Source: a virus. From it: a stretch of 40,159 nt of DNA. The stretch lies in UHGV virus genome UHGV-0014911; one strand, 5' to 3'. Below, in pieces: positions 386 to 40,159 of this stretch. A model generated the notes under the pieces. It searched no databases. It saw nothing but the letters and a program-made list of their open reading frames with translations, and was not told the origin of the DNA. A program made the translations under genes and the position numbers. Each line of letters opens with the position of its first letter. The first letter of the stretch is position 1.

Positions 386-1621
386 ATGGCGCTGTCTGAT
401 GCGTGGTTGCGTTCAGTCGTTGGAAAGGAACGTGATAAGGTTTTGGTTAAATCCGATCGTGATGGTCTGTCTGTCAGAGTATCACCGAAAGGTCGCGTAG
501 TGTTCCAATATCGTTATCAATGGGCAGGGAAAGGTGAGCGCCTTGATATCGGAACTTACCCGGCAACTGGATTAAAAGAGGCCAGAGAAGAAGTTATCCG
601 TCTCCGTGGTGAACTCGAGTCAAACCGCAATCCACGATTAGTCAAGCAGGCTGAAAAACGAAAAGCTACTGAAGCCATGACGGTAGAGTCTGTGATCTGT
701 GCCTGGTATGAAGCATATTGTGTAAAAAATAAAAAAGGTTCTGAACAGATACTCCGCTCGTTTGAGCTGCACCTGTTCTCTAAAATCGGGAATATCCCTC
801 ACGATGCAGCTACATTGCATGATTGGTTAGAAGTCCTGGAGCCTCTTAGCACCAAGACTCCAGCAATAGTAGACCGATTGCTAATTAACGCAAAGCAGGC
901 TCATGTCTGGGCGTATAAGAGAAAGCTCATTGAAACTCGCCCACTGTCGGATATCACGGGTAAAGATATGGATATCCGTAAAGGTCAGAAAAAACGGTTT
1001 CTGACACATGATGAAATTAACATCCTTTATGCTGCGATCGATGGTTCTCGAATGGTTCCTAAATACCGAGCCTTCATTAAACTATTGCTGCATTTTGGTT
1101 GCCGTAGTTCAGAGCTAATTACTGCTAGGGTGGATGATTTTGATTTCATAAATAAGGTATGGACTGTACCACCAGAACGACATAAGACTGGGGACATAAC
1201 AGGCGAACCGCTAAAGCGGCCCATTATTGAACCGGTTGAAGAGCTTATAAAATACGTTATCTCTATGAACAACGGTTCCGATATGCTTTTTACTAAGGAA
1301 GGAAGCAGGGAGCCAGTTGGTCGGACATCATTGCAGTCGCTGCCTTACAATTTAATGCAGTTCGCATGGCGACGTTTGGGGTATCAATTTCCTCATTGGT
1401 CTCTTCATGATTTGAGACGAACAGCACGAACAAACTTTTCTGATCTTACTGCTCCTCATATTGCTGAAATAATGCTTGGTCATAAACTGCCAGGTGTATG
1501 GCAAGTTTATGATAAGAGCGATTATCTAGAAGAACAGCGTAAAGCTTACTGGGCATGGTGGGAGAGGGTTGAATCGATCGTTACTTGTACTGACTTAATC
1601 TCCAACGGACAGTTTGCGTAG
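386..1621 (+). CDS. int: Tyrosine site-specific integrase (P4/CP4-57-like, N-terminal arm-binding domain)
   Basis: 411-aa ORF with RBS AGGTGA before the ATG. The C-terminus carries the tyrosine recombinase signature (HDLRRTARTN ... LGHK ... VYDKSDY). It sits next to the apparent attachment junction. Confidence 0.9.
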   Translation: MALSDAWLRSVVGKERDKVLVKSDRDGLSVRVSPKGRVVFQYRYQWAGKGERLDIGTYPATGLKEAREEVIRLRGELESNRNPRLVKQAEKRKATEAMTVESVICAWYEAYCVKNKKGSEQILRSFELHLFSKIGNIPHDAATLHDWLEVLEPLSTKTPAIVDRLLINAKQAHVWAYKRKLIETRPLSDITGKDMDIRKGQKKRFLTHDEINILYAAIDGSRMVPKYRAFIKLLLHFGCRSSELITARVDDFDFINKVWTVPPERHKTGDITGEPLKRPIIEPVEELIKYVISMNNGSDMLFTKEGSREPVGRTSLQSLPYNLMQFAWRRLGYQFPHWSLHDLRRTARTNFSDLTAPHIAEIMLGHKLPGVWQVYDKSDYLEEQRKAYWAWWERVESIVTCTDLISNGQFA

Positions 1622-5970: not shown

Positions 5971-6663
5971 TTAATTGTGTCGCTTAAGGGTTTGTGACTG
6001 ACTGATTAAGACCTTTCCAAAGACCATAAACCGATGTTCGTTTTCGCTGGTAATTCCCCATTCGCGGTAAATCTGATTATCAGAAATTACCAGCAGTTTA
6101 TCAGGTATCATTTGCAGTCGTTTGACGTAAATTTTATCATCAAAACCAAATACATATATACCATCCCCATCAAACTGATTGATACTGATATCAACGAAGA
6201 TGAGATCTCCTGGCTCAATGGTTGGACACATACTGTCCCCACGAACGTTGATAACTTTAATGTGATTTGCTGGTCGTCCACCAAACATCGATACAGCATT
6301 ATCAGTTCTGTATTCAATGGCATGAATCACATCAATGACATCACCGCCCTGGATAAGGCCATTTCCCGCACTGGCACTGACATCCAGCATTTCAATACGG
6401 AATACATCCTTCACCTGCGCAACATCCTCACTAATACTGTTTTTACATACAGTATTACTTTTGAGGTCTGAGGTAAAGAGATCAGCAATATCAACACCTA
6501 AGCTCCTGGCAATATTACTCAGGGCTTGTTCAGTGAATTGTTTCTGCTTACCTGTTTCGAGGCGCGAGATATTCGCCGCATCCACTCCTATTGCTTCAGC
6601 GAGATCGGCGATTTTCATGTTCTTCGCCTGGCGAAGTTGTCTGACTCGATTTCCTATGTTCAT
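5971..6663 (-). CDS. CI-like phage repressor (N-terminal XRE-type HTH plus C-terminal S24/LexA-like autopeptidase domain)
   Basis: 230 aa. HTH near the N-terminus (KIADLAEAIGVDAANISRLETGK), Ala-Gly cleavage site (SASAGNG), and Ser/Lys dyad motifs (VRGDSMCPTIEPGDLIFVD; YVKRL). Confidence 0.9.
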   Translation of the reverse strand: MNIGNRVRQLRQAKNMKIADLAEAIGVDAANISRLETGKQKQFTEQALSNIARSLGVDIADLFTSDLKSNTVCKNSISEDVAQVKDVFRIEMLDVSASAGNGLIQGGDVIDVIHAIEYRTDNAVSMFGGRPANHIKVINVRGDSMCPTIEPGDLIFVDISINQFDGDGIYVFGFDDKIYVKRLQMIPDKLLVISDNQIYREWGITSENEHRFMVFGKVLISQSQTLKRHN

Positions 6664-28743: not shown

Positions 28744-30568
28744 ATTTGAGCTTAAGGCGTTGATCACCGGTGTCGACAGGCTTTCTCCCGCGCTGTCGAA
28801 AATGCAAAAGAAAATCCGGGGATTTAAACGCCAGGCGGAAGAAGCGTCACAGGGTGGGCTGGCGCTTGGTGGCGGACTGGCAGCGGGTCTGACGCTTTCC
28901 CTGAAATCTTATGCCGATCAGGAAAACGCCGCCACCGGGCTGAAAGTCGCCATGATGGATGCGAACGGCGAGGTTGGAAAGAGCTTTCAGGACATCAATA
29001 AACTGGCTATTGGCCTGGGTAACCAGCTACCCGGTACAACGGCTGATTTCCAGAACATGATGCAGATGCTGGTGCGTCAGGGGATCCCGGCAGAAAACAT
29101 TCTGGGTTGTGTGGGTAAAGCGACAGCTTATCTTGCGGTACAACTGAAAAAAACACCGGAAGCGGCTGCCGAGTTTGCCGCAAAGATGCAGGATGCTACC
29201 GGAACGGCGTCAGAAGACATGATGGGGCTGTTCGACACTATCCAGAAGGCGTTTTATCTGGGCGTTGACGATACCAACATGTTGTCCTTCTTCACTAAAA
29301 CCAGTTCTGTTCTGAAGATGGTGAACAAGGATGGTCTTCAGGCTGCACAGAGCCTTGCCCCCATCAGCGTCATGATGGATCAGATGGGGATGAACGGGGA
29401 GGCGGCAGGTAATGCCCTGCGAAAAGTTATCCAGTCAGGATTAAGTGTTAAGAAAATCAGGGACGTCAATAAAGTCATGGCCCGCCAGAAACTCGGGGTA
29501 CAGCTCGATTTTACTGACGGCAAAGGAAGTTTTGGCGGTCTTGATAACATGTTTAAGCAACTGGCAAAGTTGCGAAAACTGACTGACGTTAAGCGAACTA
29601 ATGTACTTAAGGCAATATTTGGTGATGATGCCGAAACCATTCAGGTGGTCAATGCGCTGATCGATAAAGGAAAGGATGGTTACGATCAGATCCAGCAGAA
29701 GATGAATAAACAGGCCAGCCTGAATAAACGTGTTCAGGCACAGCTTGGTACGTTGTCCAACCTGTGGGAGGCAATGACGGGGACCGCAACTAACGGCCTT
29801 GCAGCTATTGGCGGCGCATTTTCTGGTGACGCTAAAAATATCACGCAATGGCTGGGGGAGTTGGGGGAGAAATTCACGAAGTTTGCGGATCAAAATCCCC
29901 GGGTTATTCGCGGCGTCGTCGGGCTTGCTGCCGGTCTTGCGATTCTGAAACTGGGATTGATGGGCGTGGGCAGTGCCATCAGTATCGTCAGCAGGATCAT
30001 GTCGATGACGCCGATTGGCATGATTGCGACGGCGATTGCCCTGGCTGCGGGATTAATTATCACTAACTGGGATGTTGTTGGACCTTATTTCAAGAAGCTC
30101 TGGGAAACCATTGGTCCTTATTTTGAGGTTGGCTGGGAACTCCTTAAGAAAGTTTTTGCCTGGTCGCCGCTGGGGATGGTGATCAATAACTGGGGACCGG
30201 TTGTTAAGTGGTTTCAGGATATGTGGGACAAGCTGAAGCCAATTATTGAGTGGTTTACTGACAGTTCCGGTGACACGGTCGATGCCATTAACTCTGCGCA
30301 GTGGGGCGCAGGTGCCTATGATGCTTATGGGACGGGAATACCGGCGTGGGGATACACACCTTATCCGGCGGTGGATCCGGCTCAGTCAAACAACGCCTCC
30401 GGTGCCACAGGTCCGAATCCCTTCATGATTAACAAAGCTTCTGCGCCAAAAGTTGATGGTGAGATCAAGGTATCTTTTGTGAATATGCCACCAGGTATGC
30501 GGGTTATGGAAACGCGATCCAGCGGTATTGATGTCAGCCATGATGTTGGCTATACGCGGTTCAGGTAG
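28736..30568 (+). CDS. Tail tape measure protein
   Basis: 610 aa, long helical Ala/Gly/Met-rich protein with a hydrophobic segment, placed after the frameshifted chaperone. Confidence 0.9.
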   Translation: MAEFELKALITGVDRLSPALSKMQKKIRGFKRQAEEASQGGLALGGGLAAGLTLSLKSYADQENAATGLKVAMMDANGEVGKSFQDINKLAIGLGNQLPGTTADFQNMMQMLVRQGIPAENILGCVGKATAYLAVQLKKTPEAAAEFAAKMQDATGTASEDMMGLFDTIQKAFYLGVDDTNMLSFFTKTSSVLKMVNKDGLQAAQSLAPISVMMDQMGMNGEAAGNALRKVIQSGLSVKKIRDVNKVMARQKLGVQLDFTDGKGSFGGLDNMFKQLAKLRKLTDVKRTNVLKAIFGDDAETIQVVNALIDKGKDGYDQIQQKMNKQASLNKRVQAQLGTLSNLWEAMTGTATNGLAAIGGAFSGDAKNITQWLGELGEKFTKFADQNPRVIRGVVGLAAGLAILKLGLMGVGSAISIVSRIMSMTPIGMIATAIALAAGLIITNWDVVGPYFKKLWETIGPYFEVGWELLKKVFAWSPLGMVINNWGPVVKWFQDMWDKLKPIIEWFTDSSGDTVDAINSAQWGAGAYDAYGTGIPAWGYTPYPAVDPAQSNNASGATGPNPFMINKASAPKVDGEIKVSFVNMPPGMRVMETRSSGIDVSHDVGYTRFR

Positions 30569-30667
30569 TGTACAAAATGATTAATGTGTTTTTGTCTGGC
30601 ATAATTTGGGTTTTCAACTTTAAGTAGTTAATATAATCACTCCTTACAAATGATTGAAGGGATGATT

Positions 30668-31162
30668 ATGCGTATCTTTGTGTTTTTTATATCTGCACTT
30701 TTATCTTTTAACTTGGCAGCGGAAGAGTGTAAGTTCAGCTTTAATGAGTCAGAATTAATCTCTTCTATAGGTATTGCACCAGTTAAGCAAGAGATAGTAA
30801 AGGATGAAGGAATAACTAAGCGTCAATATGAATTCAGGAGAGAATTGTCTTTTGAAGAAATGCTTGGCGATGATGCTGATGAAAAATATGAGCCGCAGTT
30901 TTATATATCTGTTTATAATCCATCATGTCCACAAAAGGTTATTATTTGGTTTTTCAAAGACAATAAAAACACACAAGCTTTAAGTAATGAGGTCCTTGCT
31001 GGTAGAGCATTCAAGTATTTAACTGGTGTTAATGAAAGTATTTTTGAAAATAAAATGAAAAAGTTTTCAAAGGTACAGTCATTTGAATCCTTTGATGAAA
31101 GGACGGACTCTAAATTTATAAAGAGTGGTAATGTTTATTCCATTGATGTTCAACTCAGATAG
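30668..31162 (+). CDS. Secreted hypothetical protein encoded by an AT-rich moron inside the tail operon
   Basis: Start placed at the ATG at 30668. N-terminal signal peptide MRIFVFFISALLSFNLAAEE, AT-rich DNA, TATAAT box about 30 bp upstream, hairpin plus T run downstream (about 31184-31245). Confidence 0.6.
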   Translation: MRIFVFFISALLSFNLAAEECKFSFNESELISSIGIAPVKQEIVKDEGITKRQYEFRRELSFEEMLGDDADEKYEPQFYISVYNPSCPQKVIIWFFKDNKNTQALSNEVLAGRAFKYLTGVNESIFENKMKKFSKVQSFESFDERTDSKFIKSGNVYSIDVQLR

Positions 31163-31252
31163 TAATTGAAAATATTAGAACCCCGCTACATCTTCTGCGA
31201 TGTAAATAACTGACAAAGCAGATTTGGCGGGTTTTTTGTATCCGGAGTTTAT

Positions 31253-32581
31253 ATGACGTGGAAAGACAGGCTTCAGGATGCGTCATTTCGCGGCGTACCG
31301 TTTAAGGTTGAAGAAGAAAGTGCGGGAACCGGTCGCCGTGTGGAAACACACGAATATCCGAACCGCGACAAGCCCTATACCGAAGATCTGGGAAAAGTCA
31401 CTTTCCGCCCGTCCATCACAGCTTATGTGGTGGGAGATGACTGCTTTGACCAGCGCGATCGCCTGATTGACGCGCTGAATAAACCCGGTCCCGGCACGCT
31501 TGTCCACCCGACATATGGTGAGCTGAAAGTCTGTGTTGACGGGGAAGTTCGGGTCAGCACATCGAAGAGTGAAGGGCGTATTGTCCGCTTTGACCTGAAG
31601 TTTGTCGAAGCAGGAGAACTCTCTTACCCCACATCAGGTGCGGCGACGGCGCAGACGCTGATGTCATCCTGTTCTGCACTGGATGACTGCATCAGTGACA
31701 GCTTCAGCGGTTTCAGTATCGATGGTGTGGCGGATTTCGTGCAGAACGACGTTATCGGTAATGCCAGCATAATGCTGGGGTATGTTTCTGATGCGATGAA
31801 AGTGGTGGATTCTGCCGTATCGGATGCCGCCAGGCTGTTGCAGGGGGATATCTCGGTACTTCTGCCGCCGCCATCGTCAGGCAAAAATTTCGTTGAGCAG
31901 GTGCAGAAAATGTGGCGTACCGGGAAACGCCTTTATGGTAACGCCAGCGACCTGGTCACCATGATCAAAACGCTTTCCGGTGTCAGCCTCGGCAGCGATC
32001 TGCAACCGCGCGGCGTCTGGAAAACGGACAGTAAAACCACCGCCACGGCGACGCAGCAGCGTAACGTGGTTGCCAGCACCCTTCGTACGACCGCAATCAG
32101 CGAAGCGGCGTATGCCGTCACCCGATTGCCTGCGCCAACAACTTCCGCGGTGATGCAGAATGCCGCAGTGGGGCAGGCAACAACACCCGTGCAGAGCACT
32201 GGCTGGCCTTCCGTCACGCATCCGGCACTGAACAATGCACCGGCGGTGAAAAACACGGTTGACCTGCCGACGTGGGAAGAACTGACCGACATTCGCGACA
32301 CACTGAATACGGCAATTGATAAGGAGTTGTCCCGTACAACCAGCGATGCGCTGTTTCTGGCGCTGCGCCGGGTGAAAGCAGATCTGAATGCGGATATCAA
32401 CACGCGCCTTGAACAGTCTGCACGGATCATTCAGCGCACACCGGATGAGGTTTTACCCGCGCTGGTGCTGGCGGCGACCTGGTTTGATAACGCGGCGCGT
32501 GACGCGGACATTATCCGGCGTAATGCCATTACGCATCCCGGCTTTGTGCCGGTGATCCCTCTGAAGGTGCCAGTGCAATGA
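31253..32581 (+). CDS. DNA circularisation protein (Mu gpN-like)
   Basis: 442 aa, N-terminal motif WKDRLQDASFRGVPFKVEEES ... HEYPNRDKPYTEDLG, immediately after the tape measure/moron. Confidence 0.8.
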   Translation: MTWKDRLQDASFRGVPFKVEEESAGTGRRVETHEYPNRDKPYTEDLGKVTFRPSITAYVVGDDCFDQRDRLIDALNKPGPGTLVHPTYGELKVCVDGEVRVSTSKSEGRIVRFDLKFVEAGELSYPTSGAATAQTLMSSCSALDDCISDSFSGFSIDGVADFVQNDVIGNASIMLGYVSDAMKVVDSAVSDAARLLQGDISVLLPPPSSGKNFVEQVQKMWRTGKRLYGNASDLVTMIKTLSGVSLGSDLQPRGVWKTDSKTTATATQQRNVVASTLRTTAISEAAYAVTRLPAPTTSAVMQNAAVGQATTPVQSTGWPSVTHPALNNAPAVKNTVDLPTWEELTDIRDTLNTAIDKELSRTTSDALFLALRRVKADLNADINTRLEQSARIIQRTPDEVLPALVLAATWFDNAARDADIIRRNAITHPGFVPVIPLKVPVQ

Positions 32582-33657
32582 ACGACAATGTCACGCTACG
32601 GGTAAATGGCCGGGAGTGGAATGGCTGGACATCGGTGCGCATCGGTGCCGGTATTGAACGGCTGGCGCGGGATTTCAGTGTGGAGATCACCCGCCAGTGG
32701 CCGGGAGATGAGGGTATTACCACGCTTCAGCCGCGCATTAAAAACGGTTCAAAAGTGGAGGTGCTGATTGGTGATGAGCTGGTGATCACCGGCTGGGTGG
32801 AGGCGACGCCCGTTCGTTACGATGCCCGTTCGGTCAGCACCGGTATTGCCGGACGCAGTCTGACCGCTGACCTGATTGACTGTGCAGCCGAACCGACACA
32901 GTTTAACGGACGATCGCTGGTACAGATTGCGCAGGCGCTTGCTGCGCCTTTCGGCATTGAGGTGGTGAACAGCGGTGCGCCGTCGGGTGTTATTCCTGAC
33001 GTCCAGCCTGATCACGGTGAAACGGTGATTGAGGTAATCAACAAAATACTCGGTCAGCAGCAGGCACTGGCTTACGACGACCCGCACGGCAGGCTGGTGA
33101 TTGGCGGTATTGGCTCAACGCGGGCACATACTGCGCTGGTACTCGGGGAAAACATCCTTTCCTGCGATACGGAGAAGAGTATCCGGGAGCGGTTTTCTGT
33201 TTACCAGGTGGCGGGGCAGCGTGCCGGAAACGACGATGATTTCGGTGAGGCCACCACCACCGCGCTGCGGGCCCGCACAGAGGACGCATTTATTGCCCGT
33301 TACCGTCCGATGTATATCAGGCAGACAGGGCAGGCCACGGGGGCAGGCTGTATTGCGCGTGCTGACTTTGAAGCCCGACAACGGGCGGCGCGGACGGATG
33401 AAACCACCTATGTGGTGCAGGGCTGGCGACAGGGTAACGGTACGCTGTGGCAGCCCAACCAGCGGGTGATTGTCTTCGATCCGGTCTGTGGTTTCGACAA
33501 TACCGAACTGCTTGTTTCGGAAGTCACGTTTACTCAGGACCAGAACGGCACCCTGACGGAAGTCCGTGTCGGCCCACCTGATGCTTATCTGCCTGAACCC
33601 GAAGCCCCCGGCGCGCGGAAAAAGAAAAAAGCCAGAGTACAGGAGGACCCGTTCTGA
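32578..33657 (+). CDS. Baseplate hub / tail protein (Mu gpP-like)
   Basis: 359 aa, conserved position between the circularisation and spike genes. Confidence 0.7.
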   Translation: MNDNVTLRVNGREWNGWTSVRIGAGIERLARDFSVEITRQWPGDEGITTLQPRIKNGSKVEVLIGDELVITGWVEATPVRYDARSVSTGIAGRSLTADLIDCAAEPTQFNGRSLVQIAQALAAPFGIEVVNSGAPSGVIPDVQPDHGETVIEVINKILGQQQALAYDDPHGRLVIGGIGSTRAHTALVLGENILSCDTEKSIRERFSVYQVAGQRAGNDDDFGEATTTALRARTEDAFIARYRPMYIRQTGQATGAGCIARADFEARQRAARTDETTYVVQGWRQGNGTLWQPNQRVIVFDPVCGFDNTELLVSEVTFTQDQNGTLTEVRVGPPDAYLPEPEAPGARKKKKARVQEDPF

Positions 33658-34205
33658 TGAGGACGATTGAAGCCATGCAGCGACAACTCCTCGGCCTGAT
33701 TGGGCGGGCCGTGGTGAAAAGCATCAGTGCCGCCACGAAATGTCAGACCGTGGATGTGTCCCTGATTGCCGGTGAACCCAAAGCCGGGGTTGAACATCTT
33801 GAACCCTACGGTTTTACCGCAAGGGCAAACAGCGGTGCGGAAGCGGTGGTGTTGTTTCCGGATGGCGACCGTTCTCATGCGGTGGTTGTTACGGTGTCGG
33901 ACCGTCGCTACCGCCTGAAAGGGCTGCAAACGGGGGAGGTGGCTGTCTATGACGATCAGGGGCAGTCCGTGACGCTGACCCGGGAGGGGATCGTGGTGGA
34001 CGGTGCAGGTAAAACGATCACGTTTCGCAATGCGCCTAAGGCACGTTTTGAAATGGACCTGGAAGTGACAGGACAGGTGAAAGACCTGTGCGACTCCGGC
34101 GGCACCACCATGTCAGCGATGCGGCTTGCCTATAACGGCCATCGTCACAGAGAGAACGGTCAGGGCAGTAACACCGACAAACCTGATAAAGCGATGGAGG
34201 CATGA
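33657..34205 (+). CDS. Baseplate assembly protein V (spike; Mu gp45-like)
   Basis: 182 aa, beta-rich spike-like N-terminal domain, typical position. Confidence 0.75.
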   Translation: MRTIEAMQRQLLGLIGRAVVKSISAATKCQTVDVSLIAGEPKAGVEHLEPYGFTARANSGAEAVVLFPDGDRSHAVVVTVSDRRYRLKGLQTGEVAVYDDQGQSVTLTREGIVVDGAGKTITFRNAPKARFEMDLEVTGQVKDLCDSGGTTMSAMRLAYNGHRHRENGQGSNTDKPDKAMEA

Positions 34206-34630
34206 TGGAACTGTGGCTGACGGTGAACGGTAAACGCACCTGCGCCAGCGCACCGCTGGATCCGCTGACCCGCGCCGTTGTGATTTCCCTGTTTACCTGG
34301 CGGCGGGCGGAGCCTGATGATAATGCCGACGTCCCGATGGGATGGTGGGGGGATACCTGGCCTGCGGTACAGAATGACCGTTACGGCTCCCGACTGTGGC
34401 TGCTTCAGCGCAGCAAACTGACCAATCAGCTGGTGCAGACGGTAAGGGGGTATATCCGCGAATGCCTGCAATGGATGATTGATGACGGCGTGGTGTCCCG
34501 TATTGATTTGGATATCCGCCGTACCGGGATTAATGAACTGGGTAACAGTATCACTCTCTGGCGTCGTGACGGACCGGTAATGATTTCTTTTGATGATCTG
34601 TGGAGTGCGATAACGCATGGCGGACAGTGA
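34202..34630 (+). CDS. Baseplate protein (Mu gp46-like; gpW/gp25 family)
   Basis: 142 aa, directly before the baseplate J-like gene. Confidence 0.7.
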   Translation: MMELWLTVNGKRTCASAPLDPLTRAVVISLFTWRRAEPDDNADVPMGWWGDTWPAVQNDRYGSRLWLLQRSKLTNQLVQTVRGYIRECLQWMIDDGVVSRIDLDIRRTGINELGNSITLWRRDGPVMISFDDLWSAITHGGQ

Positions 34631-35675
34631 ATTTCAGCGCCCGACGCTGGCAGAAAATATCAGTATGCTCCGTAACGATTTATTCGCCAGGCTGGACGTC
34701 AGCGACACGCTCCGGCGCATGGATGAAGACGTGCGGGCAAAGGTGTATGCGGCGGCGCTGCATACGGTTTACGGTTACATCGATTATCTGGCAATGAACA
34801 TGCTGCCTGACCTGTGCGATGAGTCCTGGCTGGCGCGACATGCTGCGATGAAACGGTGTCCGCGCAAGGGGGCCACGGCTGCCAGCGGGTATATGCGCTG
34901 GGAAGGTGTCAGCGATGGCCTGAAGGTGACTGCCGGGAGCGTGATTCAGCGCGATGACCTGGTTCAGTACACGGCAACTGCTGATGCAACCAGCTCCGGT
35001 GGTGTCCTGCGCGTGCCGATCACCTGCTCAACTACAGGCGCGGTCGGTAACGCTGACGACGGTACGGCATTAATCCTGGTCACGCCGGTGAATGGTCTGC
35101 CGTCTTCCGGTGTGGCTGACACCCTGACAGGCGGATTTGATACTGAAGAGCTGGAAACGTGGCGCGCCCGCGTCATTGAGCGGTATTACTGGACGCCGCA
35201 GGGCGGGGCTGACGGGGACTATGTCGTCTGGGCTAAAGAAGTGCCCGGCATTACCCGCGCATGGACATACCGTCACTGGATGGGAACGGGAACTGTCGGT
35301 GTGATGATTGCCAGCAGTGACCTGATTAATCCCATTCCGGAAGAATCAACGGAAACGGCGGCAAGACAACATATCGGGCCACTGGCCCCGGTGGCAGGCT
35401 CTGATTTGTATGTGTTCAGGCCGGTGGCACATACGGTGGATTTTCATATCCGCGTGACGCCGGACACACCGGAAATACGGGCTGCCATCACCGCCGAGTT
35501 GCGTTCGTTCCTGCTGCGTGATGGTTATCCGCAGGGAGAACTGAAGGTGTCACGTATCAGTGAGGCGATTTCCGGTGCGAACGGGGAATACAGCCATCAG
35601 TTGCTTGCACCGGCGGACAATATCACCATTGCGAAAAATGAACTGGCGGTTCTGGGGACGATTTCATGGACGTGA
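34617..35675 (+). CDS. Baseplate J-like protein (Mu gp47-like)
   Basis: 352 aa, position and size typical of the J family. Confidence 0.8.
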
Positions 35676-36250
35676 CAAACGATGATTACATCCGTCTGTT
35701 GTCGGCACTGCTGCCCCCTGGTCCGGCGTGGTCAGCCAGCGATCCGGCGATTGCCGGTGCAGCACCGTCATTAACCCGCGTTCATCAGCGTGCGGATGCC
35801 CTGATGCGGGAGCTGGATCCGCGCACCACCACTGAACTGATAAACCGCTGGGAGCGTCTGTGCGGCCTGCCGGATGAATGTATTCCGGCGGGAACGCAGA
35901 CCCTTCGCCAGCGTCAGCAACGGCTGGATGCGAAGGTTAATCTGGCGGGCGGCATCAATGAGGATTTTTACCTTGCACAGCTTGCTGCCCTGGGCAGACC
36001 AGACGCCACCATCACGCGATACGATAAAAGCACGTTCACCTGCTCATCGGCCTGTACTGACGCAGTGAATGCGCCGGAATGGCGGTATTACTGGCAGGTC
36101 AACATGCCAGCCGCCACCAACACCACCTGGATGACATGTGGCGATCCCTGTGATTCCGCACTGCGTATCTGGGGCGACACCGTTGTCGAGTGTGTGCTTA
36201 ACAAACTCTGCCCGTCGCATACCTACGTAATTTTTAAATATCCGGAGTAA
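35666..36250 (+). CDS. Tail protein (Mu gp48 / YmfQ-like, DUF2313-type)
   Basis: 194 aa, Cys-rich C-terminus, immediately upstream of the tail fiber gene. Confidence 0.7.
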
Positions 36251-36253
36251 TCC

Positions 36254-37012
36254 ATGCATCGTATAGACACGAAAACCGCGCAGAAGGATAAGTTCGGCGC
36301 GGGTAAGAACGGTTTTACCCGTGGTAACCCCCAGACCGGCACGCCAGCCACCGATCTGGATGATGACTACTTTGACATGTTGCAGGAGGAGCTTTGCAGC
36401 GTGGTGGAGGCATCCGGTGCCAGCCTGGAGAAGGGGCGGCACGACCAGTTGCTTACCGCGCTTCGTGCGCTGCTGTTAAGTCGCAAGAATCCGTTTGGCG
36501 ATATCAAATCGGATGGCACGGTGAAAACAGCTCTCGAAAACCTTGGTTTGGGAGAAACGATAAATAAAGCCTCCGGAGCTATGCAGAAATCGGCTAATGG
36601 AGCTGATATTTCTGATGTATCAGCCTTCCGAAATGCGCTCCAGTTAGGGACCGCTGCAACACGAGATGTTGGAGCAGATAATGCCTCGAAGTTACTGGAT
36701 TTAGACAGCTTCAGGTCAATGATGTCAGGTAATGGCTACATCTACATTCCATGCATTGCGACGACAGGAAACCCGGTGAAACTTATGTTGCAGTGGGGAA
36801 CGGTGGCAACACAAAAGGGAGCTGATGCTGGATATGCCTTACCATTTGCTTTTCCCTATGCAGGCTTGTTTGCGACCGGAAACCGTGGAACATCTGGCTA
36901 CAATGCCGCGATGAATGTGCGTATTGCCAGCAGAACGCATATCAGTATTCAGAACTGGTCGCCATCCGGAGAGGGCACCGAAGATTGTTGTTTTATCGCG
37001 TTGGGGTATTAA
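36254..37012 (+). CDS. Tail fiber protein
   Basis: 252 aa; conserved fiber N-terminus ([36 protein letters not shown]) with a variable C-terminal domain; RBS GGAG. Confidence 0.85.
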
Positions 37013-37014
37013 GA

Positions 37015-37449
37015 ATGAATAAATTTTATAAAGGATCTTTCTATCCGGAAGCTCTGAAAGAGGTATATATCAACGCTGGCTCATGGCCTGAAAACGGCGT
37101 TGATGTTGATGATGAAACAATGGCAATTTACACGAGCGTAGCGCCAAAAGGTAAAATTCTGGGGGCAGATAAAGACGGTAATCCTACATGGCTGGATATT
37201 CCTCCCCCGAACCATGAAGAGTTAATCCGGATAGCAGAAAACGAACAGAAGAGGCTTCTAACCCATGCTGATGCTGTAATGCTCGACTGGCGAACTGAGT
37301 TGATGCTGGGTGAAATAAGCGACGCCAACAAAGCTAAACTGTCGGCGTGGATGGCTTATAAAAACGAAGTTAAGGCGATTGATGCGACAACCGCTCCCGA
37401 GCATGTTAACTGGCCGGTTCCTCCGGATGGTGGGGCCATCAGGTATTAG
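37015..37449 (+). CDS. Tail fiber assembly protein (Tfa chaperone)
   Basis: Start placed at the ATG at 37015. Typical Tfa C-terminus (LSAWMAYKNEVKAIDATTAPEHVNWPVPPDGG). Confidence 0.85.
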   Translation: MNKFYKGSFYPEALKEVYINAGSWPENGVDVDDETMAIYTSVAPKGKILGADKDGNPTWLDIPPPNHEELIRIAENEQKRLLTHADAVMLDWRTELMLGEISDANKAKLSAWMAYKNEVKAIDATTAPEHVNWPVPPDGGAIRY

Positions 37450-37661
37450 ATGCGTTTGGCCTGTCAATATGCATTAAAATTGATGTAGTACAGATAGTGT
37501 GAGGGACAACCCCTTATTTAGTGATTTTCTTCTTCCCTACACGATTGTGTAGGGATAGAGGTTTAATAAAAGCCGGAACCGTTAATTATTGTCGACGCTC
37601 AAATTGGTTATGTAACTTAATCTATTGTGTTGTTTTTTTTTGAACTTAATCCAATTAGATT

Positions 37662-38745
37662 CTATAATTTTGATAGTGGTGACGGTCTTTTTTTTATCAG
37701 CTTGGTTAAATTTCTATATGCAATTTCAGATCTTAACCCACTAACTCCAGTATAAGATGTCATTGTTTTTCTTAACTTATTATTGAAGTGTGGAGATTGA
37801 TATTTGCGTAGAACATCCATAATGTCTTTTATATCACAGGAGTCAGCCACTATATCAAAATCACGATATACATTACCATTTTGTTCAGGAATAATAATGG
37901 TTGGTTTGTACGCTTCTATAGACTCAAGTGCAGCAGTACTTCCTGATGTTAGGACAATATCAGCTTCACTTAGTGCCTCGATGAAAGTTTTGTTTTTGTC
38001 AGATAATTTAACGCTATTGTCTAATAGGGGTGAATATATATCAATGTGTTCTGGATGTGGTCGTAATATAACGTTATAACTCTTCTGTTGTAAACATTTT
38101 ACAATATCTCTAACTATTTTAGTTGGTACTGTACTTTGTAGGGCAAAAAGAAATGATAATTGTCCTGTTTTAATTTTTATTTCTATTTCTCTTGCTGTTG
38201 TGTTATAATGCTGTGCTGTGCTGTGCTGTGCTGTGCTGTGCTGTGCTGTTATCTAGTTTTGGAAGTCCAAGACTTATTACCCTATTTCTAAATTTTTCGT
38301 TGAATTTATTAATAAAAGCCTCGCCAAACACACCGAAGTAATCAAAGCAATCAAAGTTATTCTCATATCCTTCCCAGTTTTGATAAAATCCATGTTGAAG
38401 CCCAATGAAAATTGGACTTTTATAACTGTTATTCATGGCTTTCTTTAAATCTAATTCCGGACCTGCAACACAACTGGTCATCAAAACAGCATCATAATTA
38501 ACTGCATTTTTTGTAAAATCTAAAAGAACCTCTTCTTTTGTTCTGTTGACAAAATTAAAATTAGAATCAATTTTATCTACCAAAAGAATGTTTTCTTTAA
38601 TTTCCAGTAGTTTTCTGTGATTTGGATCGGATATTCTAGGGAAGAATATATAGTCACATATTCCTCCGTTCTTACGGATTTCATAAACTAAGGGAAGCCA
38701 GTTTTCTAAACATCTGTAAGTAAACGCAGTAAATAATATTCGCAT
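37662..38745 (-). pseudogene. AT-rich transferase-like cargo gene split into two reading frames at a pentanucleotide repeat (currently frameshifted; candidate phase-variable gene)
   Basis: The N-terminal segment (ATG at 38745, MRILFTAF...) runs into the repeat and stops at 38203. A second frame is open with no stop and no start codon from 38252 to 37662, spanning the repeat, and encodes ...ILRPHPEH ... IVLTSGSTAALESIEAYKPTIIIPE... The two frames meet exactly at the repeat. Confidence 0.7.
38210..38249. repeat. Perfect pentanucleotide microsatellite (GCTGT)x8 inside the coding sequence
   Basis: Eight uninterrupted GCTGT units on the plus strand, encoding (STAQH)n on the minus strand, located exactly where the frame breaks. 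Confidence 0.95.
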
Positions 38746-38784
38746 TGTTGTATGTTGTCCAATTGATAATAATGCATTCTTCTG

Positions 38785-38813
38785 ATTGTACAATGGTTTG
38801 TTGTTTGTTACAA
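38785..38813 (-). promoter_or_regulatory. Candidate sigma-70 promoter of the transferase-like gene (TTGTAA, 17-bp spacer, TACAAT)
   Basis: Read on the minus strand, about 40 nt upstream of the ATG at 38745; the -10 overlaps the palindrome ATTGTACAAT. Confidence 0.4.
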
Positions 38814-38896
38814 CAACGCTGCAGAGTTATAAGTTAGAATATGCTCGGGAGATTATTAGTGATAATTAAATCTGAATAGAAACCAAATCTTGTACG

Positions 38897-39209
38897 CCCA
38901 AGAAAGGGATAAAACTTCTCAGTTTGACGGATAGCATCGATACGAGTACGCCTATGGGCAGATTCTTCTTTCATGTAATGGGCACTGGCAGAAATGGAAA
39001 GGGAGCTTATAATCGAACGCTACCGGGCAGGTTTAGAAGCTGCGCGCGCGGAAGGTCGCATTGGTGGCCGTAGACCAAAACTAACGGATGAGCAGTGGGC
39101 GCAGGCAGGGAGATTAATTGCTGCAGGGGAAACGCGTCAGCGCGTGGCAATAATTTACGATGTAGGAGTGTCAACACTATACCGAAAATTCCCTGTAGGC
39201 AGGGCTTAG
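38897..39209 (+). pseudogene. Remnant of a Gin/Pin/Hin-family serine DNA invertase (5'-truncated and internally frameshifted)
   Basis: One frame reads ...LSLTDSIDTSTPMGRFFFHVMG; a second frame, offset as if 2 bp were deleted, reads ALAEMERELIIERYRAGLEAARAEGRIGGRRPKLTDEQWAQAGRLIAAGETRQRVAIIYDVGVSTLYRKF. These match the invertase middle and C-terminal HTH; the N-terminal catalytic part is missing. Confidence 0.7.
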
Positions 39210-39258
39210 ACATGATGCAGGCCGCCGGTAAAGATTAATGCTGGCAGCCAGCACAACT

Positions 39259-39525
39259 TTAGAGCCCAACCTGGCGAACTGTCGGGAACTCAGACACCAG
39301 CCACATATCGGCCTCTTCAAACATATCCTCCAGCATGCGGTTCAGCTTTTCCCGATCGCTTTTGCTGGCATCGCTATTCAAGGCGTTTGCCTGCATCGGT
39401 TTCACCTTCACTTCGGCATAAGGGAAAATCTGATGCACTTGCTTCGTCAACTCAGCCAGGATGATCTCTCTGGCCCCCGCCAATCCTTCAACATTACGCT
39501 TGTCATAAACCAGTTCAACGAACAT
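39259..39525 (-). CDS. DinI-family protein (MsgA-like)
   Basis: 88 aa starting MFVELVYDKRN with an acidic C-terminal region; LexA boxes lie just upstream. Confidence 0.75.
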   Translation of the reverse strand: MFVELVYDKRNVEGLAGAREIILAELTKQVHQIFPYAEVKVKPMQANALNSDASKSDREKLNRMLEDMFEEADMWLVSEFPTVRQVGL

Positions 39526-39542
39526 ACAAGCCTCCGGAAAAA

Positions 39543-39586
39543 TACTGTGATTGTATACAGTAATTTTACTGTAAGAATAAACAGTG
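39543..39586. promoter_or_regulatory. Two tandem LexA (SOS) boxes upstream of the MsgA-like gene
   Basis: TACTGTgattgtatACAGTA (39543-39562) and TACTGTaagaataaACAGTG (39567-39586); both fit CTGT-N8-ACAG. Confidence 0.7.
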
Positions 39587-39644
39587 TCAAGGCGAGCTGA
39601 GTGCGAAGAGGTGATGTATTTTTGTTACCCTTAGTTACAAACAG

Positions 39645-39677
39645 AAAACCCCAGACCGTGAAATCTGGGGTTCTTTT
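39645..39677. terminator. Bidirectional Rho-independent terminator
   Basis: Hairpin CCCCAGA-ccgtgaaa-TCTGGGG flanked by A and T runs on either side; downstream of the dinI-like gene on the minus strand. Confidence 0.6.
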
Positions 39678-39910
39678 AAAGTGCACGTGCATATTTTTGT
39701 CTTTTCTCGGTCTGCCTACTGTCTGGTCAGTGTCCGTAAGTGGCTGTTTTTATTTCCTCTTTCCGGTTGCAGTCCTATCAAAAGTGGTGGAGCTGGCGGG
39801 AGTTGAAACCGCAGACACGTCGTATGCAAGAACGTGCTGCGGTTGGCTGGTAAGCTTCCGATAGTGCGAGTATTGAATGATTTCCAGCCGTTACTGATTT
39901 TACGTGCTAA

Positions 39911-40159
39911 TTAGTGAACAAACCACTCGTCAGCAGACTCCCGGGTATCTTTCAGAGTTTCCTGAACAAAAGTTTTAGCTGAATCTTTATCGGCGGTGCG
40001 CGTAACAGAAAGGCCATCGTTGCTGGTGGCTTTTACGATCACCTCTACATCGTCATAACGCTTACTGATGCGTCGAGTTAATTCTTCCTTTAACGCATCC
40101 ACAGCACCGTTTGGCATTTTAGTCATCTTCTCTTTGGCTATGCAGATCTCAATACGCAT
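39911..40159 (-). CDS. dinI: DinI-like DNA-damage-inducible protein
   Basis: 82 aa, MRIEICIAK ... ESADEWFVH, closely resembling E. coli DinI; the start codon sits at the last bases of the window. Confidence 0.8.

Follow-up and report, generated by a model that had tools for sequence, protein, structure and literature searches.

The closest described systems to the pair of DinI-family genes considered here, dinI_A and dinI_B at the right-hand end of virus genome UHGV-0014911 (40,159 nucleotides; this whole stretch is termed the window), are the chromosomal dinI genes of E. coli and S. Typhimurium, the Salmonella gene msgA and the dinI homologues of the Gifsy prophages. The dinI gene of E. coli has a single LexA box, and canonical MsgA is a protein of about 79 aa that lacks an FPTVRQVGL tail. 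In S. Typhimurium, LexA boxes lie 19 and 42 bp from the ATG of the chromosomal dinI, the second of them weak (heterology index 17.6), and msgA is mildly SOS-induced with one predicted LexA box 14 bp from its ATG (PMC8072944). The Gifsy dinI homologues are LexA-dependent, mitomycin-induced and preceded by terminators (PMC3121763), and nalidixic acid induces these copies 4.6- to 23-fold (PMC8072944). At the protein level, cryo-electron microscopy of RecA-DinI indicates that LexA, UmuD and lambda CI occupy the same groove of the RecA filament as DinI; eight RecA-contact residues of DinI are important, namely L13, L21, W71, W77 and F78 (hydrophobic pocket for RecA F203) and the acidic E24, E69 and D76, and alanine substitution of W71 impairs filament stabilisation (PMC9926225).

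We propose that the right end of an SfV-like E. coli prophage inserted in prfC probably carries dinI_A and dinI_B as accessory genes (morons): two SOS-controlled units that were joined by mosaic recombination. The original prediction had read them as two DinI-family genes, one of them MsgA-like, and this is borne out at several levels. Both proteins recover the Pfam DinI domain PF06183 (about 63 residues; gathering cut-off 24.2 bits), DinI_A with an E value of 3.5e-21 (75.7 bits, profile positions 2-63 of 63) and DinI_B with 5.1e-17 (62.4 bits, positions 1-63 of 63). A second profile that recognises the two proteins is PHROG 189 (‘RecA filament binding protein DinI’), with alignments to the C-terminal half alone of its 151 positions (71-150), and phmmer searches recover the E. 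coli DinI structures 1GHH/7YWA in the PDB (E 6e-6 for DinI_A, 9e-11 for DinI_B). In alignments DinI_A is 35% and DinI_B 46% identical to E. coli DinI, and the two share only 30% identity. When clustered at 90% identity, DinI_A falls together with a protein that bears the name ‘virulence protein MsgA’ and matches it at 89% over 65 aa; hence, the label MsgA-like is a fair one. Homologues of dinI_A in viral contigs comprise 54 distinct variants, 53 of which are intact at 88 aa, and in public databases the two proteins go by the names ‘DinI family protein’ (42 contigs) and ‘DinI-like family protein’ (35 contigs).

The regulatory region of dinI_A contains two adjacent 20-bp LexA boxes, as had been predicted from the letters of the window. 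For scoring we used the core CTGT-N8-ACAG, the 20-mer consensus TACTG(TA)5CAGTA and a rough position weight matrix (PWM), which is based on known E. coli sites and gives approximate scores (null maximum 14.8 bits). The proximal box has four mismatches to the 20-mer and scores 19.9 bits, the distal one has five and scores 21.0 bits; they are separated by 4 bp and lie 17 and 41 bp from the ATG. Beyond these scores, there are four occurrences of the core in the 40-kb window against 0.36 expected, a number reached in 0 of 100 shuffles, and sites with up to five mismatches to the 20-mer occur at a mean of 0.03 per simulated 40 kb. Of the five highest-scoring LexA-like sites in the prophage, all above the null maximum, four belong to the dinI promoters and the fifth lies within cI. 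The dinI_A promoter itself matches 11 of 12 consensus positions with a 16-nt spacer. Since the boxes cover the -35/spacer region and the predicted start site (near 39556, minus strand), with the -10 element between them, the geometry fits LexA repression by promoter occlusion. The strong predicted intrinsic terminator upstream of this promoter would end the dinI_B transcript and insulate the dinI_A promoter. At the other end, dinI_A appears to be monocistronic: the next gene is a convergent remnant of an invertase gene, 38994-39209(+).

It had also been thought that only one of the two genes carries tandem boxes. This does not hold: the window stops at the start codon of dinI_B, and the difference between the genes is thus an artefact of its edge. 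In a public E. coli contig (L010) that is 100% identical to window positions 29259-40159, from which we read the region past the window and number it in window-equivalent positions, dinI_B too is preceded by two boxes. These lie 14-61 bp and the whole promoter 14-65 bp past the window end (L010 9302-9355). The -35 of this promoter, TTGACA, overlaps the distal box, and its -10, AAAAAT, falls in the gap. Each dinI gene therefore has two LexA boxes, placed on the -35/spacer and on +1, and three of the four combine 4-5 mismatches with an intact core.

This arrangement recurs in relatives. We surveyed viral contigs at 60 loci with close dinI_B homologues and 60 loci with genes of the dinI_A type. 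Two strict CTGT-N8-ACAG boxes are present at 56 of the dinI_B-type loci, the other four having one strict and one relaxed box; at the dinI_A-type loci, two strict boxes were found in 9/60 and one in 43/60. We compared 40 distinct promoters with two boxes: their -35 and distal box overlap, most commonly as a TTGACA|CTGT junction (28/40), the -10 lies in the A-rich gap, and either 13 or 17 nt separate the end of the proximal box from the start codon. The centre-to-centre spacing of the boxes is 24 bp in one type of cassette and 28-29 bp in the other. As the spacing varies, we infer that each box occludes its own part of the promoter, with no requirement for cooperativity on one face of the helix; tight control by two boxes would be plausible. 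Of 5426 complete E. coli genomes, 4205 contain homologous DNA, some in as many as eight places. The order terminator, -35/LexA box, -10, LexA box and dinI is a standard and portable cassette at many enterobacterial prophage ends.

Whether the genes belong to phage or host had been considered undecidable from the window, and the comparison with prophage-free genomes proposed for this purpose locates attR and assigns both genes to the prophage. The element is an SfV-like myovirus, with morphogenesis genes 97% identical to those of SfV, SfII and SfI-type myoviruses. The window starts with the yjjG-prfC intergenic region and the first prfC codons, interrupted at 155; past the right edge of the window, the remainder of prfC is joined to a substitute 5' end that the phage supplies. 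The flanking host DNA has 99.7% identity to E. coli. The empty prfC site reconstructed from the two host arms is found uninterrupted and at 100% identity in prophage-free E. coli, and 4717/5426 complete genomes have it as one piece. Both dinI genes fall within the attachment (att) repeats; they occupy the right end, past the genes for tail fibres and assembly. Their position between the repeats and absence from the empty site make them phage cargo rather than host genes.

From 91-155 and L010 9080-9366 (window-equivalent 40160-40440), the insertion lies at about codons 17-21 of prfC and replaces its promoter and first 16 codons. Since the prophage supplies the start of prfC together with all DNA upstream of it, release factor 3 of a lysogen must be transcribed from phage DNA. 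This transcription is divergent from the LexA-controlled dinI_B promoter, and no clear prfC promoter was predicted. TGTACA-containing motifs (for example TTGTACATAAT and TGTACATATG) are repeated near both prophage ends (311-375 and window-equivalent 40310-40365), where, beside the att cores, they are probably arm-type binding sites of the integrase or excisionase.

The two modules are each found singly at other sites. Window positions 38925-39812 run from the invertase remnant through dinI_A with its promoter and the terminator to a 28-nt identity with the 3' end of ssrA (the transfer-messenger RNA, tmRNA, gene); they align at 93% to an E. coli locus (L001) where the dinI_A module adjoins the real ssrA gene, and a copy of the module at 87.5% identity is found at a prophage end beside torT (L004). 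The boxes of dinI_A and also its -35 are kept in L001, L002, L003 and L004. Positions 39806-40159, on the other hand, are 93-98% identical to the dinI region of lambdoid phages such as PhiR63_1, 2H10, cdtI and mEp460, in which the dinI_B module adjoins the tail-fibre region. Two boxes and the -35 are retained in all of these elements. One Shigella flexneri and one E. coli genome match just positions 39789-40159, at 96%, with a dinI_B copy; the gene beside that copy is, from its translation, probably yecD. The tandem of dinI genes was observed in 8/8 contigs with an insertion at the prfC site, where the phage next to it differs (Mu-tailed, P2-like or lambdoid), and in 0/160 viral loci; among 5426 complete E. 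coli genomes, none covers at least 80% of the 901-bp tandem region.

Tandem duplication as the origin of the pair is rejected, given the 30% identity of the proteins and the occurrence of each module alone in other phages. We likewise reject two prophages in tandem at ssrA: on the host side the element is flanked by prfC, and both genes lie between the att repeats. From these comparisons the pair appears to have been assembled by mosaic recombination between prophage ends, with predicted joints at about 39806-39812 and 39904-39910; the ssrA relic (39785-39812) would be a footprint of this joining, and the dinI_A module would come from an ssrA-integrating ancestor. ARAGORN and Rfam searches detected no tRNA or tmRNA gene between dinI_A and dinI_B, and such a gene is rejected, the ssrA-like stretch being a 28-nt relic. 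The Rfam search of this interval gave sub-threshold ClpQY_promoter, CssrB and COG3860 matches alone, all far under their gathering scores. The T-arm-like part has a G-to-U change relative to ssrA. In the prophage at torT (L004), the approximately 92 nt that follow the relic (39785-39904 for relic and 92 nt together) also occur upstream of the dinI_A homologue, and lambdoid phages have them downstream of genes of the dinI_B type. At the position of the invertase remnant, related prophage ends (L001, PhiR63_1) have full-length recombinase genes.

In the mechanism that we propose, dinI_A and dinI_B would be separate units, each with a strong sigma-70 promoter and two LexA operators. In an undamaged lysogen LexA would occupy both operators and hold the dinI genes off; upon DNA damage RecA* would cleave LexA and both proteins would be made, by analogy with dinI and the Gifsy dinI homologues. 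DinI_A and DinI_B would then bind the groove of the RecA filament, stabilising the filaments, and would compete there with LexA, UmuD and CI-type repressors, including the prophage's own S24 repressor. As this repressor is of the autocleaving S24 type, an effect of such groove competitors on prophage induction is conceivable. With the contact residues mapped through alignment to E. coli DinI, seven of the eight positions are identical or conservatively replaced in each protein: DinI_A keeps L13, E24 and W77, with I for L21, D for E69, F for W71 and L for F78; DinI_B keeps L21, E24, W77 and F78, with M for L13, D for E69 and E for D76.

Several points weigh against this picture. The remaining contact position in DinI_A is the acidic D76, which is lost (now M), and codon 73 of dinI_B (CGG) places an Arg at the equivalent of W71. 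Both proteins score far below the cut-off of the NCBIfam DinI equivalog NF007893 (37.6 bits for DinI_A and 65.9 for DinI_B, against 111); they are hence paralogues and not dinI orthologues, and their activity may differ from that of DinI. LexA binding, SOS induction and RecA binding are all properties that we infer for these genes. Finally, in Gifsy, whose dinI homologues are the best-studied relatives, their non-polar deletion did not alter induction significantly (PMC3121763).

The last result also favours the strongest alternative, which we regard as a serious contender at a little under even chances: the pair would be cargo of benefit to the host which, once induced by SOS, dampens or shapes the host's SOS response, for example by limiting UmuD cleavage or by improving survival of stress, quinolones or macrophages; the lysogen would be favoured and prophage induction left unaffected. 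An att-proximal location past the tail-fibre genes, together with an own promoter and terminator, is typical of a moron, and the MsgA-named member of the DinI_A cluster points the same way. Moreover, the gene groups for which an association with quinolone-resistance evolution in E. coli has been described include a DinI-like prophage gene (PMC10575684), and DinI-like proteins of Citrobacter rodentium have been listed as prophage ‘fitness’ cargo. Such a role is, however, compatible with the mechanism above, as the biochemistry is identical and the beneficiary alone differs. Further, the CI here is RecA-cleavable, unlike the situation in Gifsy, and an effect on induction is accordingly more plausible in this prophage than it was there.

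It is less likely that one or both copies are decaying relics, the tandem being a by-product of recombination and dinI_B being in the course of losing its function. The W73R replacement in dinI_B, at the equivalent of DinI W71, could be read in this manner: Trp occupies position 73 in 80/80 phage homologues and in the sister contigs with the same tandem (L008 and L014), and the Arg is hence a recent change, which may weaken this copy. The core of the dinI_B distal LexA box is CTGA in the lineage of the window and CTGT in the sister contig L014; the occurrence of both changes in one lineage may indicate relaxed selection on dinI_B. The surroundings, with an invertase remnant reduced to its helix-turn-helix (HTH) part and an ssrA att relic, and the rarity of the tandem, with the exact proteins on 35-42 contigs and the tandem absent from complete genomes, are also in keeping with decay. 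Nevertheless, neither open reading frame (ORF) is disrupted and each has a good ribosome-binding site, DinI_A has many counterparts that are intact at 88 aa, the altered distal box of dinI_B still scores 19.1 bits, and a single substitution is no proof of loss of function.

More speculative, and in our estimate improbable, is a three-node SOS circuit composed of two divergent DinI paralogues with altered groove surfaces and a conserved LexA operator in cI. The DinI proteins would here act as selective competitors for the RecA* groove that time the cleavage of CI, or would protect against or provoke the induction of co-resident prophages, while the intragenic LexA site would give direct LexA control over expression of the repressor. 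If true, this would amount to a phage-encoded rewiring of who RecA* cleaves and when.

The site within cI is the best LexA match in the window (TACTGTTTTTACATACAGTA, 6435-6454; three mismatches, 25.5 bits) and sits in the linker-coding part of this S24-type repressor gene. Its CTGT and ACAG cores are kept in phage 1720a-02, in Salmonella ST64B (where the region is 75% identical) and in Klebsiella phage Kp4872-1 (69%); the middle of the box and the peptide encoded there differ. A search of viral contigs for a series of divergent copies returned those with 99-100% identity alone and was uninformative. No sigma-70-like promoter overlaps 6435-6454; the site could act as a roadblock or be associated with a weak internal or antisense promoter.

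The prospect of a LexA-controlled antirepressor module, such as Tum of phage 186 or the Gifsy dinI-gfoA/gftA-irsA operons, is very remote, and we reject it for dinI_A and dinI_B. The match to the C-terminal half alone of PHROG 189 fits the presence of Tum-like fusions in that family, and the succession of terminator, LexA promoter and dinI is laid out as in Gifsy (PMC3121763). Yet proteins of 88 and 82 aa have no N-terminal antirepressor half and thus no fused domain, and neither gene has a partner ORF: dinI_A is followed by no same-strand ORF before the hairpin and the convergent invertase remnant, and dinI_B just by a 37-aa ORF with a TTG start that overlaps the ssrA relic. The repressor, with its S24 autocleavage domain, needs no antirepressor. 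Equally remote is the idea that the dinI_B unit acts in part through a small RNA (sRNA) from its 3' untranslated region, after the precedent of DinR, the dinI 3'-end sRNA of Klebsiella that represses ftsZ through a Klebsiella-specific pairing region (PMC10907235): this region of dinI_B is long (about 265 nt to the terminator) and folds better than shuffled sequence (z = -3.0), but the same sequence is conserved without an upstream dinI, after ssrA (L001, L003) and beside torT (L004), it has no significant Rfam match, and the terminator and att relic explain its conservation and structure, so that an sRNA is not needed.

Table 1. Features of the dinI pair and of the prophage that bears it; positions above 40159 are window-equivalent.
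Feature	Position	Strand	Description
dinI_A	39259-39525	minus	88-aa MsgA-like DinI-family protein (ORF, Pfam PF06183, PHROG 189)
Shine-Dalgarno of dinI_A	39532-39536	minus	GGAGG, 6 nt upstream of ATG
Proximal LexA box of dinI_A	39543-39562		TACTGTGATTGTATACAGTA; over predicted transcription start, ends 17 nt before ATG
-10 of dinI_A	39563-39568	minus	TAAAAT; in gap between LexA boxes
Distal LexA box of dinI_A	39567-39586		TACTGTAAGAATAAACAGTG; fills promoter spacer, 2-nt overlap with -35
-35 of dinI_A	39585-39590	minus	TTGACA
Weak hairpin	39238-39254	minus	Possible terminator, directly after dinI_A stop codon
Intrinsic terminator	39645-39674	minus	13-bp stem and U run; upstream of dinI_A promoter
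dinI_B	39911-40159	minus	82-aa DinI-family protein; ATG is final 3 bases of window
LexA box of dinI_B	40173-40192		CACTGTGTTTGTATACAGTG; 19.5 bits
Distal LexA box of dinI_B	40201-40220		AACTGTATGAATAATCAGTG
ssrA (tmRNA) 3'-end relic	39785-39812	minus	28 nt; att remnant of dinI_A module
Pin/Hin-type serine invertase remnant	38994-39209	plus	71 aa, C-terminal HTH_7 domain alone
attL core	142-155	plus	ATTATTTCTCACCC; 14-bp direct repeat, in original 5' end of prfC
Second att copy	40427-40440		ATTATTTCTCACCC; about 268 bp past window end
Tyrosine integrase	386-1621		
CI-type repressor	5971-6663	minus	HTH and S24 peptidase domains

To the left of the invertase remnant, the low-GC (guanine plus cytosine) region 37500-38800 contains a cargo ORF (38203-38793, minus) with no Pfam or PHROG match, within which lies a perfect pentanucleotide repeat, (TGCTG)x8.2, at 38209-38249. 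The called length of this ORF ranges from 175 to 413 aa among contigs otherwise 99-100% identical, and the alignment to the contig L009 breaks exactly at the repeat; it looks like a candidate phase-variable (contingency) gene of the slipped-strand kind on a prophage. A LexA-like 20-mer in the same ORF (AACTGGTCATCAAAACAGCA, 38472-38491; 16.4 bits against the null maximum of 14.8) is probably due to chance.

Taken together, the dinI pair is a real but ordinary case: LexA-regulated dinI cargo of prophages is already known from Salmonella Gifsy, its practical value is modest and none of this is new in kind. Given the occurrence of dinI-homologous DNA in most complete E. coli genomes surveyed, lysogens may, under SOS, produce several additional proteins that bind the RecA groove, with possible effects on mutagenesis, on how well DNA-damaging antibiotics are tolerated and on the induction of prophages, including Stx phages. 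Among the known systems, E. coli DinI (81 aa, chromosomal) belongs to the same Pfam family, has the same size and likewise a LexA-controlled promoter, and its C-terminal acidic and aromatic helix is conserved here, with W77 in both proteins; dinI_A and dinI_B differ in being prophage-borne paralogues, the former with a 9-aa C-terminal extension. Salmonella MsgA, a macrophage survival protein of the DinI family, is matched by dinI_A, which differs in being prophage-borne, in having two strong boxes and in its length of 88 aa. The Gifsy-1, -2 and -3 dinI homologues resemble the present genes in context, being prophage-encoded with a terminator followed by a LexA-box promoter. They possess, however, a single LexA box (PMC8072944), as do many dinI_A homologues in viral contigs, whereas each gene here has two. 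Further, they head antirepressor operons in prophages with non-cleavable repressors, while those reported here are monocistronic units without an antirepressor, in a prophage with an S24-type cleavable CI. In operator layout a counterpart is the chromosomal dinI of S. Typhimurium, whose boxes are placed nearly as those of dinI_A (19 and 42 bp against 17 and 41 bp), with the distinction that both dinI_A boxes are strong. The pair joins the multi-operator SOS promoters, such as those of lexA, recN and S. Typhimurium dinI, which have at least two LexA boxes no further than about 50 bp from the start codon.

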